Source: Patescibacteria group bacterium (lineage in GTDB: Bacteria > Patescibacteriota > Patescibacteriia > UBA9934 > GWF2-40-263). Taken from it: DNA of 64,000 bases. Shown here piece by piece: positions 7,374-56,900 of the stretch (position 1 is the first letter of the stretch; each line of letters starts with the position of its first letter). Made by a program: the position numbers and the translations under genes. Where the stretch lies: NCBI GenBank assembly GCA_004297215.1, contig SCUM01000001.1, positions 353,181 through 417,180 on the forward strand. The letters run 5' to 3'. Under the pieces are notes generated by a model that was not told the DNA's origin, ran no database searches, and saw only the letters and a program-made list of their open reading frames with translations.

Positions 7374-7412
7374 CCTAACAAAAAACCGCCCTTGAGTCTA
7401 GGGCGGTCTTCG
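7374..7412 (-). terminator. Rho-independent terminator downstream of the 7420-8310 gene
   Basis: The minus strand reads ggcgaagaccgccctagactcaagggcggttttttt: a 7-bp GC stem followed by a U-run. Confidence 0.6.
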
Positions 7413-7419
7413 CCATATC

Positions 7420-8310
7420 CTACTCTATTTCCTTCCATTCCTTCTCACGCTCCTTCATGCTTTTTTCCAACTTCTTACGGACATCCTGAATCGTCATCGG
7501 CGTATGCGCCTGCTTCCCCCGATAATCGACCCAGAGTTCCCCATTGCCGACATCGAGGTGCGAGCTTTCGACAAAATCCCTATACGTTCCACCAAGCTCA
7601 TTGATGCTCTCGACGTTTATAGACTTACCCATTGCCATAAGCGTCAGCCAGTCACTGAAATAATTGTGACTCACGGAAACTAGGTGGGTAGGTCTGTCCG
7701 GAAAGTGTTTTTTTGAAAGCTGATCCATGCGTTCAACATAATCCACAGCTAGGAAAGCGTATTCTTCCGGCGTTTGGATGAATTCGGCTGGATTAATCGT
7801 CGAAGGATCTATGTCTGGATGTGTACGTCTAAGTTCCTCCTTGAGCGCGGGGATTTCTTCCTTCCTTGCGGTCCAAATCTTTCCTACGATGGACTCATCT
7901 TTGTAGAGGCTGCGCCATTTTTGAAAAGCTGAGTCAGCCAGATCCTCCTTCCTGAGACTGTATCCGAGCATGGTTTGCGGAGCCGTCTCCGTGATGAGAA
8001 GTTTCTTGTCAGTTCTGGTTTTAGCTTCATCAATTTTCTCAGCATCCTTCACGGATACAGCTTCGAAGTCGCCATCTTGTGAAACCAGGTCGAGTAAACT
8101 TGATTCCAAGGTCCGCTTTGTATCAATTGCACGGCCGATGTTTGAAGAAAAAAGCACAATGACAGCAGGAGCAGGAATCTCCTTTAGACGTTCGTAAAGC
8201 TCATGCGCCTTTTTCTTGGCCTGTTCAATCCCCTGTTCGGATAATCCTTCCCCCTTCTTGTGTCCGTGACGCATGATCTCGAACTGTGTGCCCGACCGTC
8301 GTTCCGTCAT
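7420..8310 (-). CDS. Histidine phosphatase superfamily protein (phosphoglycerate-mutase-like branch), paralog 1
   Basis: The N-terminus FEIMRHGHKKGEGLSEQGIEQAKK matches the RHG catalytic motif plus the LTEKGREQA-type segment, and a second His motif is present (LVSVSHNYFSDWL). The start was set to MTERR (ATG at 8308-8310), which forms an ATGA overlap with the stop of the 8307-9521 gene. It lies in the lower-GC island. Confidence 0.6.
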   Translation of the reverse strand: MTERRSGTQFEIMRHGHKKGEGLSEQGIEQAKKKAHELYERLKEIPAPAVIVLFSSNIGRAIDTKRTLESSLLDLVSQDGDFEAVSVKDAEKIDEAKTRTDKKLLITETAPQTMLGYSLRKEDLADSAFQKWRSLYKDESIVGKIWTARKEEIPALKEELRRTHPDIDPSTINPAEFIQTPEEYAFLAVDYVERMDQLSKKHFPDRPTHLVSVSHNYFSDWLTLMAMGKSINVESINELGGTYRDFVESSHLDVGNGELWVDYRGKQAHTPMTIQDVRKKLEKSMKEREKEWKEIE

Positions 8311-28876: not shown

Positions 28877-29188
28877 CTAGCGGGCCGAAACGGCCTGACC
28901 GTTGAAGGCGTTCACCTGGCTCGAGAGCGACGCGATGTCCATGCTCGAGACCAACACGGCTCCCGAGAGCACGAGCATGACCGCGGCCATGGCAAGGAAC
29001 AGGCGGTTGGGGCCCAGCGGGAGATGGTGGCAGTCGCTGCAACCATAGGCTAGCTGCGGACCCGGCGGCGGTTCGATCGTAGGTTCGTCGGGGCCCTGCA
29101 GGAGCGACATGGGCCCGCCTTCGTCAAGGCTGCGGCGGGCATGCGTGCGGCGGCGCGCGCTGGTCGTGCTGATTCTTCGGGTGGCCAT
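28877..29188 (-). CDS. Small membrane protein (hypothetical)
   Basis: 103 aa ending ...NRLFLAMAAVMLVLSGAVLVSSMDIASL... with the ATG at 29186-29188. The listed 419-aa ORF in this frame is otherwise Arg-rich junk, so only the distal part is called. Confidence 0.35.
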   Translation of the reverse strand: MATRRISTTSARRRTHARRSLDEGGPMSLLQGPDEPTIEPPPGPQLAYGCSDCHHLPLGPNRLFLAMAAVMLVLSGAVLVSSMDIASLSSQVNAFNGQAVSAR

Positions 29189-31440: not shown

Positions 31441-31815
31441 CTATCGACCGTACTTCGTCTTGAGGTCTTCGAGGACGCGCTGCGTCCCCATCCGCTCGTA
31501 AGCATCGAGCACGTGCGGCGGCGGGGGCTCGACCCCGATGGTGCCCTCGCGGGTGTCCGTGCGGAACCACCCCTTGTGGTAGGTTCCATCCTCGGACTGG
31601 CCACGGAAGCACCAGCTCTGACCCGACCCGTCCTTGATACCGACCTCCGTGATGTGGAGCGTCAGCTTCTTGTTCTCCACCCACCAGTTCGACTTGTCGG
31701 TCGACTTGAGGATGAAGGTGACGGGACGGAGATTGTTCATGCTGCGCTCGAACAGCGCGAGCATGAGGTCGTACTTGCTGGGGCCGCTCTTGATACCGAC
31801 GGTGACAGATGCCAT
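31441..31815 (-). CDS. Hypothetical protein
   Basis: A 124-aa ORF starting MASVTVGIKSGPSKYDL... with lower GC than its neighbours and no motif I recognise. Confidence 0.4.
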   Translation of the reverse strand: MASVTVGIKSGPSKYDLMLALFERSMNNLRPVTFILKSTDKSNWWVENKKLTLHITEVGIKDGSGQSWCFRGQSEDGTYHKGWFRTDTREGTIGVEPPPPHVLDAYERMGTQRVLEDLKTKYGR

Positions 31816-31993
31816 TCGGCACCTCCTGACTTGCTGAATACCTCCTTGGATGGTGTGGAGGCGAGCACCGTTACGCACCCTTGCGGATGCGCCACCTGCC
31901 CATACGGGTAGGAATTGCGTCGTGTTTACGACTGATAAAAATACCACAAAAACGCCCTTTTGTCAATAGTTGGTGGCTAAGGTTGACCTAAAT

Positions 31994-32035: not shown

Positions 32036-32332
32036 CTAGGCGGTTGCGAACACGGACACGTCCCGCTCGATCCGTTTCGCGACGGCATCCTGCACGCAAT
32101 CAAGGTCATAGTGCATTTGCAGGTTCAGCCAGAACTGCGGGGTGGTGCCGAAATAACGCGCGAGACGCAGGGCGGTGTCGGAAGAAACGGACCGTGTCCC
32201 GTGAATGATCTCGTTAATCCGCCGTGCGGGAACCGCGATGTCCTTTGCAAGCCGGTACTGGGTCAGCTTATGCGGACGCAGGAACTCATGGTCCAAAATC
32301 TCGCCTGGATGAACGGGTTTTTGTTTTGCCAT
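32036..32332 (-). CDS. higA: HigA family antitoxin (XRE-type HTH)
   Basis: MAKQKPVHPGEILDHEFLRPHKLTQYRLAKDIAVPARRINEIIHGTRSVSSDTALRLARYFGTTPQFWLNLQMHYDL is the canonical HigA sequence. Confidence 0.85.
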   Translation of the reverse strand: MAKQKPVHPGEILDHEFLRPHKLTQYRLAKDIAVPARRINEIIHGTRSVSSDTALRLARYFGTTPQFWLNLQMHYDLDCVQDAVAKRIERDVSVFATA

Positions 32333-32333
32333 A

Positions 32334-32615
32334 TCAGTGATAATCGATAATTTCTACGTCATGCGCGTATCCGTCCTGCCACCGAAAGCATATGCGCCAC
32401 TGGTCATTTATCCGGATGCTGTAACGATGCAACCGATCATGAAGGAGTTTCTCAAGACGATTCCCAGGCGGCACGACAAGGTCGGCTAATGCGCGTGCCG
32501 CATGGATCATCCTAAGTTTATAGAGAGCCGTCCGCTGAATGTCCGAAGGGATTTTTCTGGACCATTCTCTCTGGAACAGACGCGCGGTCTCCTTATCGGC
32601 GAAGCTCAGAATCAT
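32334..32615 (-). CDS. higB: HigB toxin (RelE/ParE superfamily plasmid-maintenance killer protein)
   Basis: MILSFADKETARLFQREWSRKIPSDIQRTALYKLRMIHAARALADLVVPPGNRLEKLLHDRLHRYSIRINDQWRICFRWQDGYAHDVEIIDYH. Confidence 0.85.
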   Translation of the reverse strand: MILSFADKETARLFQREWSRKIPSDIQRTALYKLRMIHAARALADLVVPPGNRLEKLLHDRLHRYSIRINDQWRICFRWQDGYAHDVEIIDYH

Positions 32616-32823
32616 AATAACGCGTCACGTTATTAAATGTCAATGGGTTCGTGGAGTACAAAAAAACTCCCCAATGGCCCATTTAAGCCGGAAGGGAGTC
32701 CTCTGTCGTCACCCCGATGACCGGTGGAGGTCTCACGAAGATGAGAAGATTTAATCATGTTTTTTTCGTTTTGTCAAAGGCGAGACAAAGCGCCTAGAGA
32801 TCCTTCAGGCCTGATGGCCTTCA

Positions 32824-32871
32824 GCCTGCCTGCCGGCAGGCAGGGATGCCACCGGCCTCTGCGGCCGGTGG
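32824..32871. other. Two tandem perfect GC-rich hairpins in the higB-lexA divergent spacer
   Basis: cctgcctgcc|ggcaggcagg is a 10-bp stem with no loop. gccaccggcc tctgc ggccggtggc is a 10-bp stem with a 5-nt loop. Confidence 0.6.
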
Positions 32872-32913
32872 CACTTATCCACAGTCCCCTCTTTTTCTGC
32901 CAATCTACGACCC

Positions 32914-32959
32914 TTGTGTTCGGTTTTTGTTCGGTCTACAATACGAACATAAAGCGAAC
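32914..32959 (+). promoter_or_regulatory. lexA promoter with two direct-repeat SOS boxes (GTTC-N7-GTTC and GAAC-N7-GAAC) flanking the -10 element
   Basis: TTGTGT at 32914-32919, a 17-nt spacer, and TACAAT at 32937-32942. Box 1 GTTCggtttttGTTC (32918-32932) lies in the spacer, and box 2 GAACataaagcGAAC (32945-32959) lies just downstream of the -10. Confidence 0.55.
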
Positions 32960-33006
32960 AGGAGATTGCTTCGTCGGCTGAAGCCTCCTCGCAATGACAG
33001 ACTCCT

Positions 33007-33624
33007 ATGCCACCTCTCACGAAAAAACAGGCAGAAATCCTTGCTCACATCCGATCCCATATCGCGGAGCACGGGTACGCTCCAAGCTACCGCGAGATCG
33101 CCGAGAACTTTGGCCTCTCCTCCCCTGCCACGGTGCACCAGCATGTGAAGTCGCTCGCCGAGAAAGGGATGATCGAGGTGGGAGATGAGGGCGAAGCGCG
33201 CTCCATCGAACTCGTCGACACCGGCGAGAGCGCCTTGCTCGCGCTCGAGCTCCCGCTGGTCGGCCTCATCACCGCCGGGTCTCCCATCGAGGCGATAGAA
33301 GAGCGCGAAACCATGGCCGTGCCCGCGCAGTTCGTCCTCGACGGCGCAAACTCGTACGTGCTCAAGGTGAAAGGACGGTCGATGATCGACGACGGCATCC
33401 ACGACGGGGACTTCGTCGTGATCGAACGCAATCCAAGTCCAAGAAACGGCGAGGTCGTCGTCGCCCTCCTCGACAACGCGTATGCGACGCTCAAACGGTT
33501 TTATCGCGAGACCAACCGCATCCGCCTCCAACCCGCGAACAGCACCATGGATCCCATCTACGTCAAAGACTGCATCATCCAAGGCGTCGTGCGCGCCGTG
33601 ATCCGCAAGTTCCAGCCGGCGTAG
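33007..33624 (+). CDS. lexA: LexA repressor
   Basis: MPPLTKKQAEILAHIRSHIAEHGYAPSYREIAENFGLSSPATVHQHVKSLAEKGMIE...VKGRSMIDDGIHDGDFVVIE...RLQPANSTMDPI has the Ser/Lys dyad context intact. Confidence 0.95.
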   Translation: MPPLTKKQAEILAHIRSHIAEHGYAPSYREIAENFGLSSPATVHQHVKSLAEKGMIEVGDEGEARSIELVDTGESALLALELPLVGLITAGSPIEAIEERETMAVPAQFVLDGANSYVLKVKGRSMIDDGIHDGDFVVIERNPSPRNGEVVVALLDNAYATLKRFYRETNRIRLQPANSTMDPIYVKDCIIQGVVRAVIRKFQPA

Positions 33625-33723
33625 CACCTCCGCCCGCCGAAGCCTTGGCGAAGGCGGGTCCCCTTCCCTCACGAATCATTTCATTCCCTAGCCGCTGAGC
33701 CGTTCAGGCTCCGCCCATGCTTT

Positions 33724-33894
33724 ATGTCGTCCGCCACGCTCAAGTACTACGACGTCTCCATGGGATTCGTCCCGTTCCGCAAGGAACGCGAACTCGAACG
33801 GTCGATGAACCACCTGCGGCTGCGCGTGTCGCGCCGGCGCTTCAAGCGGGCCGTGCGGCAGATGCTGTCGCGCCTGGACTCGGTCGAGGAATAG
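33724..33894 (+). CDS. Candidate small basic protein (56 aa) between lexA and dinB
   Basis: MSSATLKYYDVSMGFVPFRKERELERSMNHLRLRVSRRRFKRAVRQMLSRLDSVEE. Codon third positions are strongly G/C, as in bona fide genes here. It falls below the ORF-track length cutoff. Confidence 0.3.
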   Translation: MSSATLKYYDVSMGFVPFRKERELERSMNHLRLRVSRRRFKRAVRQMLSRLDSVEE

Positions 33895-33971
33895 TGGAAC
33901 GTATCACCATCCACGCGGACCCACCTTCGCCAAAGGCTTCGGCGGGTCGACATGCATGGCAACGGATCATC

Positions 33972-35210
33972 ATGCATGTCGACATGAACAGCTACTTCGC
34001 CTCGGTGGAGCAGCAGTTCAATCCCGCCCTGCGCGGGAAACCGATCGGCGTGACCGGAAAACGTACCGAACGATCGGTCGTCGCGGCCGCCAGTCGCGAG
34101 GCCAAGCTTCTTGGCGTGAAAACCGCCATGTCCACCTGGGAGGCGAGGCGCATCTGCCCCTCCCTCATCATCGTGCACGGCGACCCGCGCAAGTACGCCA
34201 TGATCACCGAACGCTTCAACGCCATCTTCAACGACCATGCGGACAAGGTGGAGCGCTTCAGCGTGGACGAAAGCTTCCTCGACGTCACCATCGCCGCGCG
34301 GGACTACCTGGGCGCGATCGCCATCGCGCAGTCGATCAAGCACCATCTTCGTCGCGAGTGCGGGGAATGCATCACGGCCTCCGTGGGCATCGCTCCTAAC
34401 AAGCTGCTCGCGAAGGCCGCATCGGAACGCATGAAGCCCGACGGACTTACGGTGGTGAAACCAGGTGAGGAAATCGCGTTCCTGGACACGCTCGCTCTCG
34501 AGGACGTCTGCGGCATCGGGCCGCGCATCGCGAGGCGCCTGGGACAGCTCGGCATCACCACGATCCCCCAGCTGCGCGCCGCGCCGCTGGGACTCCTCGT
34601 GAACGAATTCAAATCCTATGGATGCTGGCTGTTGAACGCCGCGCGCGGCATCGATCCGGATGACGTGGTGCACGACCCTTCGACAGGCTCAGGGCGGCGA
34701 GCGGTCGCCCCGAAATCCGTCGGGCATTCCTACACACTCCCCCGCGACGCCTGCGCGCCTACCACGATCCGTCGCTACCTGCTCGGGCTGTGCGACAAGG
34801 TCGCCTGGCGGCTGCGACGCGACGGGTACGCGGCCCGAAGCGTGAGCGCCTACGTCCGCTTCGGCGACTTCTCCGGCGCCGGACGACAACGACGATTCGA
34901 TGAGCCCGTGAACGACGGGCTTTCCCTCTACCGCATCGCCTGGTCCTTGCTCACAGACCCCCTCATGCTCCCCCTTTCCAAGGGGGAGATAGCTCGTCCG
35001 GTCCGCCTCATCGGCCTGTCGGCTGGCAGGCTCGCGCCTGTCTCCGGACAACCCTCGCTGTTCGCCGCCGACCGCAAGCGCGAGCGCGTGAACGCCGCGC
35101 TCGATCGCGCCCAGCGCCGATTCGGCAGCGGCGCCTGGACCCGCGCATCGCTTCTCAATACGTCCATCCTGGAACGGACCAGCGGGTTCGCGTACGACCA
35201 CGAACTCTAG
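33972..35210 (+). CDS. dinB: DNA polymerase IV (Y-family translesion polymerase)
   Basis: MHVDMNSYFASVEQQFNPALRGKPIGVTGKRTERSVVAAASREAKLLGVKTAMSTWEARRICPSLIIVHGD...FSVDESFLDVT. The start was set to the ATG at 33972. Confidence 0.9.
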   Translation: MHVDMNSYFASVEQQFNPALRGKPIGVTGKRTERSVVAAASREAKLLGVKTAMSTWEARRICPSLIIVHGDPRKYAMITERFNAIFNDHADKVERFSVDESFLDVTIAARDYLGAIAIAQSIKHHLRRECGECITASVGIAPNKLLAKAASERMKPDGLTVVKPGEEIAFLDTLALEDVCGIGPRIARRLGQLGITTIPQLRAAPLGLLVNEFKSYGCWLLNAARGIDPDDVVHDPSTGSGRRAVAPKSVGHSYTLPRDACAPTTIRRYLLGLCDKVAWRLRRDGYAARSVSAYVRFGDFSGAGRQRRFDEPVNDGLSLYRIAWSLLTDPLMLPLSKGEIARPVRLIGLSAGRLAPVSGQPSLFAADRKRERVNAALDRAQRRFGSGAWTRASLLNTSILERTSGFAYDHEL

Positions 35211-43407: not shown

Positions 43408-44997
43408 TTACAACAGCGCCGTCCCCGTCATCTCCGGCGGCTGCGGGATTCCCAAGACGGACAGGACCGTGGGCGCCACGTCGGCGAGCATGCCGACCGG
43501 CTGCATGAGCGAGAGGTCGCCATCGGGTACTTCCCCGGCAGGCGACGGCACCCCCTTGAACCGGTTCCCGACGATGACGAACGGCACGGGGTTCGTGGCA
43601 TGTTCCTTGTCGATCTCGCCGGTGCGCACGTTGAGCACCTCCTCGCCGTTGCCATGGTCGGCCGTGAGGAACAGGACGCCGTCCTTCTCAAGCACGGCGT
43701 CCACCACCTTCCCGAGGAACCCGTCCACCGCCTCCATCGCCTTCATGGTCGCCGGAAGGTTACCGGTATGCCCCACCATGTCGGGGTTGGCGTAATTCAT
43801 GATGATGAGGTCGTCCTCCCCTTTGCCGATCGCCTCGATCACGCGGTCGGTGAGGTCCGCGCCGCTCATCGCGGGCGCCTCGTCATAGGAGGCCACGCGG
43901 GGGCTTGGCACCAGGATGCGCCGCTCGCCCTTGAACGGCTCCTCTCGCGTGCCATTCACGAAGAAGGTGACGTGCGCGTATTTCTCGGTCTCGGCGATGT
44001 GCAGCTGCGTGAGTCCGGCATCGGAGACGGTCTCGGCCAGCGTCTTGGAAACGGCGACCGGGGGATAGGCGACTTCCACCGGGAGTCCGGACTGGTATTC
44101 CACCATGGTGACGGGAAGCAGGTCCTTGATCGTGGCGCGCGGGAACCGCGTGAAGTCCGGGATGACGAACGCCTTCACGAGCTCGCGCATGCGGTCCGGG
44201 CGGAAGTTGAAGAAGATGACCGCGTCGCCGTCCTTGACCGTCGCGACCGGCTTGTCCGCGTCCGTCATCACGGTCGGGACGAATTGCTCGTCATACACCT
44301 CGCGCGCGTAGCTCTCCCTGATGGCCATGATCGGGTCGCTCGCGGTCTCGCCGACCCCCGCCGCCATCGCGTCATACGCCTTCTGGACCCGATCCCATCG
44401 GTTGTCCCGGTCCATGGAATAATAGCGGCCGCTCATGCTCGCGAGCTTCCCGACCTTCAGCTTCTTCATCGTCGCGAGGAGCTTCCCGACGAAGTCGATG
44501 CCGGCGTTGTAGAGCGTGTCGCGCCCGTCGAGGATAGCGTGCACGAACACCTTCTCGGCTTTCTGCTTCTTGCACAGCTCAAGCAGCGCGAAGCAATGCT
44601 CATCCATGGAATGCACGCGCCCGGCGCTCACGAGCCCGATGAGATGGATCGCGCTCCCGTTCTTCTTCGCATGCCCGATCGCCTTCCGGAACGCCTCGTT
44701 CTCGAAAAAATCGCCGCTGACGATGTCGCGGTTGATGCGCGGGAAGGTCTGGTAGTACACGCGCCCGGCGCCGATGGCGAGATGCCCCACCTCCGAGTTG
44801 CCCATTTCGCCCCACGAGAGCCCCACCTCCTCGCCGGAAGCGCGCAGCGTCATGGTGGGATAGTCGCGGATGAGCGACCGGAACACCGGCATCTTGGCAC
44901 GCGTGACCGCATTCCCCGGCCCATCCGGCGCCACGCCAAACCCATCAAGCACCATGAGCACCGCGGGTTTGGGGCGTTTATTCGAGGCATCTGCCAT
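43408..44997 (-). CDS. gpmI: 2,3-bisphosphoglycerate-independent phosphoglycerate mutase
   Basis: ...VLMVLDGFGVAPDGPGNAV...GNSEVGHLAIGAGRV...DGRD...ADHGN. The start was set to the ATG at 44995-44997. Confidence 0.9.
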   Translation of the reverse strand: MADASNKRPKPAVLMVLDGFGVAPDGPGNAVTRAKMPVFRSLIRDYPTMTLRASGEEVGLSWGEMGNSEVGHLAIGAGRVYYQTFPRINRDIVSGDFFENEAFRKAIGHAKKNGSAIHLIGLVSAGRVHSMDEHCFALLELCKKQKAEKVFVHAILDGRDTLYNAGIDFVGKLLATMKKLKVGKLASMSGRYYSMDRDNRWDRVQKAYDAMAAGVGETASDPIMAIRESYAREVYDEQFVPTVMTDADKPVATVKDGDAVIFFNFRPDRMRELVKAFVIPDFTRFPRATIKDLLPVTMVEYQSGLPVEVAYPPVAVSKTLAETVSDAGLTQLHIAETEKYAHVTFFVNGTREEPFKGERRILVPSPRVASYDEAPAMSGADLTDRVIEAIGKGEDDLIIMNYANPDMVGHTGNLPATMKAMEAVDGFLGKVVDAVLEKDGVLFLTADHGNGEEVLNVRTGEIDKEHATNPVPFVIVGNRFKGVPSPAGEVPDGDLSLMQPVGMLADVAPTVLSVLGIPQPPEMTGTALL

Positions 44998-55885: not shown

Positions 55886-55899
55886 AAAGCGAAAGGAGT

Positions 55900-56900
55900 G
55901 CGTAAGAAAGAGGGTTATCCACAGAAATGTGGGTAACGCCCCTTGACGCGTCGTTTAGGGAACGATAAGCTGCTTCTCACGTTGATGAGGCAGAAACGAA
56001 CCGACGACGTCCGTCAGGACGACCGAACGGGCGAAAAGCCTACGCAGCGTGCAAAGTGAGATGACGTCGCTCGAATCGAATGAAGGCCCCGCGAGGGAGA
56101 CCGACAGGAGAAAAGAGCGAGGATCAGGAATCTTCTGAATCATTGATGGGAATCTCTGGTGGTCCTCCGTGACTTACTGGAACCCTCCCATCAGTGCCAT
56201 CAGCCTCCCCGCCGTGAAACAGCGGAATAACCTGGCGCATGTGCATGCGTCTGGTCCAGGAGGAGCGCCGGCTCATCGAGTCGGAACCGGTCCCATTCCG
56301 GAAGGTGGAAAGCAGAAGAAGGTTTGCGGGGTAGCTGGGGAGGAGAAAGACCTCCATGCGAGCCGCAATTCAAGTCGTCGGACATGGAAGCCCGCAATTG
56401 CGCGGTTTCACCTAGAGGACGCTAATAACGTCCGCATAGGTCGCGAATGTCGGAGGGTCGCAAGACCCTAGGGATCAAGAGGCGATTCATCGCTACTTCC
56501 CTTCACTGATGACGCTCGGTGCAGCGATCCTGCACGACAAGTCATGTTTGACACCCTGCCATGGATCGCAAGATCACCAACATGGCTAGGTCCGAACGTC
56601 TTTGAACATGCCGATCCGGAGCCGAACGAGAGTAACATCTCCAGTAGGAAGGTGAGGTGGCTGGTGCTCTCGGGTGCCAGGAAAGACGTCGGGAACGTTC
56701 CCGATCGATATCGAACCGGCGCGTCAGGCATCTGGCGCGTGACATTCGACACGGTGGGTCCCGTTGGGATGTAGGAAGTAGGAAGAGCGCGTGCGCTCGG
56801 ACGAAACTACGTCTCGCGGGCCACCCGTGAAGGATTGCGAGTTGGTCAACTCCAGCGAGCACCTGAGGCCCTAGCGAAAGCGAAGGCCTCTTGAATTTTC
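55900..56900 (+). ncRNA. ORF-free lower-GC insert of about 1 kb between prfA and prmC, ending in a hairpin plus U-tract; candidate large structured RNA or ORF-less inserted element
   Basis: No ORF longer than 106 aa on either strand, and GC is about 10 points below the flanks. The 3-prime end has gaggcc...ggcctc followed by ttgaattttcatttcc, consistent with a + strand transcript. The 8-nt direct repeat agcgaaag occurs at both ends (55888-55895 and 56873-56880). Confidence 0.3.

Follow-up and report, generated by a model that had tools for sequence, protein, structure and literature searches.

Paired direct-repeat LexA operators predicted at the lexA-dinB promoter of a Candidatus Uhrbacteria genome, and a DnaA box recurring at patescibacterial lexA promoters

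The locus described here belongs to a 64,000-nucleotide (nt) stretch of a Patescibacteria group bacterium (GenBank assembly GCA_004297215.1, contig SCUM01000001.1, positions 353,181 to 417,180 of the forward strand), hereafter the window, in whose own numbering positions are given. Its plus strand carries lexA (33007..33624), which encodes a 205-amino-acid protein with winged-helix DNA-binding and S24 peptidase domains by Pfam, followed by an arginine-rich small open reading frame (ORF) of 56 amino acids (33724..33894) and by dinB (33972..35210), the gene for the Y-family DNA polymerase IV, whose true start is at 33972. Immediately upstream of lexA, two copies of the direct repeat GTTC-N7-GTTC stand in mirror orientation around the -10 element. 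Comparison with other patescibacterial genomes strongly supports the view that these repeats are real, strongly conserved sites of predicted LexA self-repression.

The promoter region, cTTGTGTTCGGTTTTTGTTCGGTCTACAATACGAACATAAAGCGAACa, agrees letter for letter, when read directly from the window, with an earlier description made from the letters alone (the sequence-only reading), which had placed the two mirrored repeats around the -10 and taken them for direct-repeat-type LexA operators. Their sequence and positions are thereby confirmed, and their assignment as putative operators bracketing the lexA -10 is supported by conservation and by an independent weight matrix. The first copy, GTTCGGTTTTTGTTC / GTTCggtttttGTTC, occupies 32918-32932 between a weak -35 and TACAAT; the mirror copy, GAACATAAAGCGAAC / GAACataaagcGAAC, reads GAAC-N7-GAAC at 32945-32959, just downstream of TACAAT and ahead of lexA. 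Taken as 17-nt units, predicted LexA box 1 (GTTCGGTTTTTGTTCGG, 32918..32934, plus strand) is a direct repeat with an 11-base-pair (bp) period that fills the -35/-10 spacer, and predicted LexA box 2 (GTTCGCTTTATGTTCGT, 32943..32959, minus strand) follows directly on the -10, over the expected transcription start and 47 nt from the lexA ATG at 33007. The -10 element TACAAT (32937..32942, plus strand) is kept as TAyaAT in 28 aligned orthologous promoters. The -35 element TTGTGT (32914..32919, plus strand), whose last two bases are the first two of box 1, lies 17 nt from the -10 and shares just 3 of 6 positions with the consensus, too few for a generic promoter scan of the window to have called the lexA promoter. 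Because that scan made no call, the promoter assignment rests on conservation: relatives keep CTTGC or TTGAC at the -35 position, with a spacer of 16-17 nt to the -10.

The bare tetramer pattern is not rare. The window holds four exact copies of GTTC-N7-GTTC against 2.66 expected and 54 one-mismatch copies against 63 expected; since these counts sit at background, the pattern alone is not significant, and the case for operators has to be made from context and conservation. Leaving out the window, we built a 17-nt weight matrix from 66 sites in other genomes (maximum 31.8 bits); it gave 30.2 bits to box 1 and 30.4 bits to box 2, and the next best of the 128,000 window positions reached 6.1 bits. 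The matrix scan thus finds only the lexA promoter pair in the window, in agreement with the earlier statement that no box lies upstream of uvrD. Two further candidates were rejected as operators: an exact GTTC-N7-GTTC at 43591 scored only 5.0 bits, and a GAAC-N7-GAAC at 33796-33810, inside the conserved small ORF, fell below the 12 best matrix scores and was treated as chance.

Conservation was assessed in 80 lexA loci fetched from one-genome-per-species assemblies, 79 of which include the lexA start. The mirrored four-tetramer layout was present with at most two mismatches in 33 loci (29 of them with none), and the gap between the boxes is 11-12 nt in every one of the 33. When 28 dual-box promoters were aligned without gaps, the consensus was CTTGCGTTCGgTTTTTGTTCGgt.TAtaATACGAACAtAAagCGAACA, in which each position within the boxes carries 1.6-1.8 bits of information and each flanking position 0.2-0.3 bits. 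Over the window and the fetched loci together (675 kb), 94 of the 123 exact copies of GTTC-N7-GTTC lie within 350 nt upstream of lexA.

An exact direct repeat precedes lexA in 66 of the 79 patescibacterial loci, which span Uhrbacteria, other Parcubacteria, Paceibacter and Saccharibacteria, and 33 of those 66 loci carry it as a single copy with no inverted partner. Typical single-copy promoters read TTGAC-GTTCGGTTTTTGTTCGG-TATAAT and GTTCTATTTTTGTTCTATA, the box filling the -35/-10 spacer or overlapping the -10. Andersenbacteria-type promoters, read by eye, have GTTGgtatactGTTC, a one-mismatch GTTG-N7-GTTC with the -10 inside its spacer. The spacer of each unit is a conserved T-tract (GTTC-KRTTTTT-GTTC). 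Box 2 occurs in the 33 dual-box loci, which comprise the Uhrbacteria-type promoters plus L048 and L057. As judged from this distribution, the recurring unit is the 11-bp-period direct repeat, elaborated in Uhrbacteria and a few others by a mirrored second box. The sequence-only reading had joined the two boxes into a larger dyad; because half of the repeat-bearing loci have one copy, the direct repeat and not that dyad is to be regarded as the functional unit.

By domain content and catalytic residues, the window protein is an intact, bona fide LexA. It matches the Pfam families PF01726 (LexA_DNA_bind, E 1e-21) and PF00717 (Peptidase_S24, E 5e-31) as well as solved LexA structures (E 5e-30), and its Ala90-Gly91 cleavage site, Ser125 and Lys163 fall in invariant columns of an alignment with E. 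coli, Bacillus and alphaproteobacterial LexA. The best LexA matches carry the names Candidatus Uhrbacteria, Parcubacteria or Patescibacteria, and NCBI taxonomy places Uhrbacteria within the Parcubacteria group of Patescibacteria; on these grounds the genome belongs to Candidatus Uhrbacteria, which bears out the earlier impression that it was not alphaproteobacterial. In the nearest locus, L001 (Uhrbacteria RIFCSPHIGHO2_01_FULL_63_20), LexA is 93% identical and the order metK, lexA, small ORF, dinB, anti-sigma-like gene, uvrD is shared. Two differences separate the window from L001: a 1.5-kb higBA insertion between metK and the lexA promoter, and a hairpin-forming insertion in the lexA leader (32961..32988, plus strand, GGAG-ATT-GCTTC gtcggct GAAGC-CTCC, read by eye). 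The leader insertion amounts to about 40 nt, and in L001, which does not have it, box 2 ends 6 nt before the ATG.

Across patescibacterial clades (L001-L080), operator positions 5-6 (GG, GA, GT or TA) track helix 3 of LexA. GTTCTA goes with LASPSTVHVHIQ; GTTCGG, GTTCGA and GTTCGT go with LSSPATVHQ(G)HV; and the Saccharibacteria variant operator GTTCGTATGCTGTTCGT goes with the helix LNSVATIAQHI. This correspondence is suggestive only, but it might reflect protein-DNA covariation.

The genes downstream of the promoter form a conserved set. By tblastn, 21 Uhrbacteria loci have the small ORF at this position. At least 21 loci keep the order lexA, small ORF, dinB, and dinB lies downstream of lexA in 37 of those fetched; its product matches the Pfam families IMS, IMS_C and IMS_HHH. 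In the roughly 350 nt that separate lexA from dinB, a generic scan called no promoter-like or terminator-like site on the plus strand and the matrix found no site above 4 bits. The conserved order, together with the lack of an intervening call or box, makes it very probable that dinB rides on the lexA transcript, as had been proposed from the sequence; the small ORF is probably co-transcribed with both genes, and dinB is likely to be the last gene of the lexA operon.

The small-ORF family comprises proteins of 50-56 amino acids of the form MSxxTLRYHxxTLxFLPxRRxR...SRRRxKQ, which are not hydrophobic; the window member matched no Pfam family. In the Bacillus control locus L204, yneA stands beside lexA, and in several other bacteria a gene for an SOS cell-division inhibitor adjoins lexA.

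Boxes away from lexA were seen only at dinB operons. In L041 dinB has a single box before it in promoter context, as do the small-ORF-plus-dinB operons of L091 and L134, two independent metagenome contigs. A metagenome-wide scan with the pattern GTTCKRTTTTTGTTCKRT returned at least 120 loci, mostly noise from unrelated organisms; usable among the matches listed were seven lexA-bearing loci and two Patescibacteria-like small-ORF-plus-dinB promoters with a box. One match before uvrB (L120) was discarded as a direct-repeat box, being really a Gram-positive GAAC-N4-GTTC that overlaps the pattern by chance. A search of the window and the fetched loci with an E. coli query sequence found no recA. 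In non-Uhrbacteria Patescibacteria a different ORF of about 75-90 amino acids (...NLVHxxxxG...FYFSVSDxxNxxKLxxDTETLEWRLVE) precedes dinB (L028, L029, L031, L032, L033, L042, L052, L054, L056, L063, L091 and L134), and in L091 and L134 this ORF and dinB form a pair with its own LexA box.

GTTC-N7-GTTC is the direct-repeat LexA motif of Alphaproteobacteria (PMC8565304), and our control lexA promoters from that class (Sinorhizobium, Cereibacter and Sphingomonas) carried GAAC- or GTTC-N7 repeats as expected. The window boxes share with the alphaproteobacterial box the tetramer, the 7-nt spacing, the head-to-tail layout and the location at the lexA promoter. They differ in detail: in the three alphaproteobacterial promoters the units, two or three in tandem, all point the same way and their spacers are mixed, whereas the window has two mirrored pairs, each unit with the conserved T-tract spacer and with GG, TA or GT at positions 5-6. 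The proteins differ more. Alphaproteobacterial LexA has the recognition helix S-K-S-G-I-H-R-L-I and a long linker insertion; the alignment shows this insertion, of 20-30 residues, in all three alphaproteobacterial LexA proteins but not in the window LexA. Identity over the DNA-binding domain is 34-36% with the three alphaproteobacterial proteins and 42% with those of Bacillus and E. coli, and alphaproteobacterial LexA is the most distant protein in the comparison. The sequence-only reading had likened the operator to the alphaproteobacterial type and had proposed a comparison of recognition helices. Run here, that comparison gave 27-33% identity over helix 3 (residues 38-52) with the alphaproteobacterial proteins against 40% with Bacillus and with E. 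coli, so that neither helix nor domain is alpha-like.

The Gram-positive (DinR) box CGAAC-N4-GTTCG is built from the same GAAC/GTTC half-site, there arranged as a palindrome with a 4-nt spacer. Of the sequences compared from outside Patescibacteria, the Bacillus recognition helix SSSTVHGHL looks the most similar, residue by residue, to the SSPATVHQHV found here, although Bacillus and E. coli tie at 40% identity over residues 38-52. GAAC-N4-GTTC itself does not occur at 32600-33010 and occurs twice in the whole window, about the chance number; nor did a pattern search find any other published LexA-box type at the promoter. Because the DNA-binding domain is no closer to the alphaproteobacterial proteins than to those of Firmicutes or E. 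coli, the half-site looks to have been retained and rearranged separately from Alphaproteobacteria, the resemblance to their box being convergent.

The E. coli lexA promoter has two side-by-side CTGT-N8-ACAG palindromes overlapping the core promoter. It thus likewise represses itself through two core-promoter operators, although the window operators, unlike those adjacent palindromes, are oppositely oriented direct repeats that bracket the -10.

Direct-repeat recognition by LexA has evolved independently several times according to PMC7739468, which cites Verrucomicrobia, Patescibacteria (Sanchez-Osuna et al. 2017, Environ Microbiol 19:3465-3474) and Acidobacterium (Mazon et al. 2006). As cited there, the 2017 motif concerns the same superphylum, the same regulator and a direct-repeat operator. 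Direct-repeat LexA sites in Patescibacteria are therefore already described, and the window adds another instance; the unexpected phylogenetic distribution that the sequence-only reading had seen in the motif is in fact the norm of the group, as the count of 66 in 79 loci indicates. Sanchez-Osuna, Barbe and Erill are said to have validated binding in vitro and to have found a small SOS regulon with translesion synthesis genes.

Several other explanations of the paired repeats have to be set against a LexA operator pair. Chance co-occurrence of two short repeats could appeal to the background frequency of the bare pattern in the window, but it is already refuted by the independent matrix, with both sites at 30 bits and the next best at 6, and by the retention of the module in about 30 genomes although the flanks diverged. 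Joint acquisition of lexA and an alpha-type box from an alphaproteobacterium would account for the identical tetramer and spacing, and lateral acquisition has a precedent in Acidobacterium capsulatum, listed among the references of PMC7739468. We nevertheless regard such a transfer as very improbable: the DNA-binding domain and helix 3 lie nearer to Bacillus and E. coli, the alphaproteobacterial linker insertion is absent, the best LexA matches outside Patescibacteria in a plasmid collection are from Firmicutes, the T-rich spacer is missing from the three alphaproteobacterial promoters, and the motif is spread over deeply diverged Patescibacteria, from Uhrbacteria to Saccharibacteria. It is also unlikely, if less so, that the unit is the whole 42-bp inverted repeat on the -10, read by one oligomeric regulator, whether LexA dimers bridging the inner or outer GTTC/GAAC pairs or another dimeric or tetrameric repressor. 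The two 15-mers do agree as an inverted repeat at 13 of 15 positions, with the dyad centre at 32938/32939 inside TACAAT; the arms of L048 are perfect reverse complements, and arm spacing is constant across the dual-box loci. Yet the 33 single-copy lexA promoters, and the dinB promoters of L041, L091 and L134, make do with one direct repeat and no inverted partner. The geometry likewise disfavours a palindrome: a centre-to-centre distance of 16 bp, some 1.5 helical turns, puts the inner GTTC and GAAC on opposite faces, whereas the tetramer centres within one direct repeat are 11 bp apart, about one turn.

A further alternative accepts the conservation and denies the regulator, taking the boxes for conserved promoter or DNA-shape elements, or for the operator of another protein, with their position before lexA incidental. 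The T-tract spacers could be structural, within the window the motif occurs only at the lexA promoter, and LexA binding here is deduced from sequence comparison, a circumstance that also weighs against our own interpretation. There is little room for this explanation all the same. Repression of its own promoter is the classic LexA arrangement and a hallmark of the regulator, and the window boxes sit in the lexA core promoter; three contigs have the motif ahead of dinB operons; the LexA proteins with the most similar recognition helix read this tetramer as their half-site; and the concentration of exact copies at lexA promoters is unlike that of a general promoter element. Other points also count against LexA operators. 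A twofold-symmetric LexA dimer has no obvious fit on a head-to-tail repeat, and the box centres are 27 bp apart, about 2.6 turns, which does not suggest simple side-by-side cooperativity. The correspondence between helix 3 and operator follows clade boundaries, so that shared ancestry could yield it. The -35 is a poor match, and the position of the transcription start is predicted rather than mapped. Finally, the only targets seen other than lexA are the dinB operons, the loci examined including no recA, uvrA or imuAB.

On balance we consider it highly likely that the locus is the autoregulated promoter of a lexA-small ORF-dinB operon in which each direct repeat is one LexA operator. LexA on box 1 would cover the -35/-10 spacer and the edge of the -35, and LexA on box 2 would lie just after the -10, over the expected start site; at either box it would exclude RNA polymerase or block the open complex, and two operators would make for tight repression. 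Upon DNA damage, RecA-stimulated self-cleavage of LexA at Ala90-Gly91 would release the promoter and raise LexA, the small protein and the translesion polymerase together.

A perfect DnaA-box 9-mer, TTATCCACA (32875..32883, plus strand), lies 34 nt upstream of LexA box 1 and 30 nt upstream of the -35; the window contains just one other exact copy. The patescibacterial lexA loci, 606 kb in all, hold 53 exact copies of the 9-mer, against about 4.6 expected by chance, and 42 of the 53 copies fall within 300 nt upstream of lexA, in 41 loci. Another four stand directly upstream of LexA-box promoters that an inserted PF05635-family gene has parted from lexA. The loci with a promoter DnaA box lie in the range L001-L073, with L083, L109, L124, L150 and L172 in addition, and among the metagenome matches listed the box is found in five independent lexA promoters; it is not present in the three LexA-box dinB-operon promoters (L041, L091, L134). 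The spacing between the DnaA box and LexA box 1 is bimodal: most loci have 11-13 nt, eight loci and the window have 32-35 nt, and the modes lie about two helical turns apart. We considered whether the DnaA box belongs to a divergent metK promoter and rejected this: nine loci and the window carry insertions of 0.8-2.6 kb between metK and lexA, despite which the box is kept 11-35 nt from box 1, and it is also found in clades without an adjacent metK.

Joint control by DnaA and LexA is known for E. coli uvrB, recN and dinJ (Wurihan et al. 2018, PMC6015884), where DnaA and LexA sites likewise occur together in a single SOS promoter. There DnaA acts as a repressor from boxes that overlap those of LexA or the transcription start; the predicted DnaA box described here precedes the -35 of lexA itself, favours two distances and is not present at the dinB-operon promoters. 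In a review of DnaA as a transcriptional regulator (PMC8203912), LexA comes up only in connection with uvrB, recN and dinJ, and the DnaA targets listed include no lexA promoter; we found no earlier description of a lexA-promoter DnaA box in the literature searched, which excludes the text of the 2017 Patescibacteria study. The coupling of a DnaA box to lexA promoters across Patescibacteria is thus possibly the one new feature reported here. The box of the window would probably add an input from the replication initiator. That it is selectively maintained, and that DnaA directly tunes the level of the SOS repressor and so ties the SOS threshold to replication initiation, we put forward tentatively, as a serious possibility that we rate slightly short of an even chance. 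A search for dnaA in the window and the fetched loci, again with an E. coli query, found none.

Some further observations concern the surroundings of these promoters. In L041 (3458-3472) and L047 (3193-3207, minus strand) an additional conserved GTTCcaaagttGTTC, some 77 nt upstream of the main lexA box, adjoins a DnaA box with one mismatch, so that possible LexA and DnaA sites stand 3 nt apart in this clade. The PF05635 gene (23S-rRNA-intervening-sequence family) inserted between LexA-box promoter and lexA was seen in some Parcubacteria (L039, L041 and L047), flanked by short AT-rich tandem repeats. The 1.5-kb insertion of the window relative to L001 (31324-32875) contains the higB/higA toxin-antitoxin pair (32036-32615, minus strand), which has its own TTGACA-18-TATTAT promoter and an operator-like inverted repeat, and a further ORF at 31441-31947. 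GC-rich palindromic elements lie at 32826-32874, where three hairpins stand just upstream of the DnaA box, and at 33634-33657, 33922-33950 and 29115-29138. A 24-nt element, CCGCCGAAGCCTTGGCGAAGGCGG, occurs after lexA, near 29115 and in L001 at 7398-7424, and again before dinB, inverted and with one extra base; it looks like a small dispersed repeat.

Elsewhere in the window, a gap of about 1 kb without a convincing ORF separates prfA from prmC (55886-56890). It starts with an inverted DnaA-box pair, TTATCCACA gaaa TGTGGGTAA (55915-55936), and contains a TTGACG-17-TAAGCT promoter-like site. The RNA fold predicted for 55975-56895 has z = -3.9 against shuffles, and a search of Rfam gave no match at the gathering score; the gap may encode a large structured RNA.

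The SOS switch of an uncultivated lineage with a reduced genome can be read directly from sequence in this case, with one predicted autoregulated operon joining the repressor, a small basic protein and a translesion polymerase. The finding is useful for annotation and regulon prediction in Patescibacteria, although it is not new in kind. An alpha-like operator paired with a LexA that is not alpha-like supports the idea that LexA has moved repeatedly to direct-repeat recognition. The DnaA box, if it acts as proposed, would represent a direct wire from replication initiation to the SOS repressor in very small genomes.

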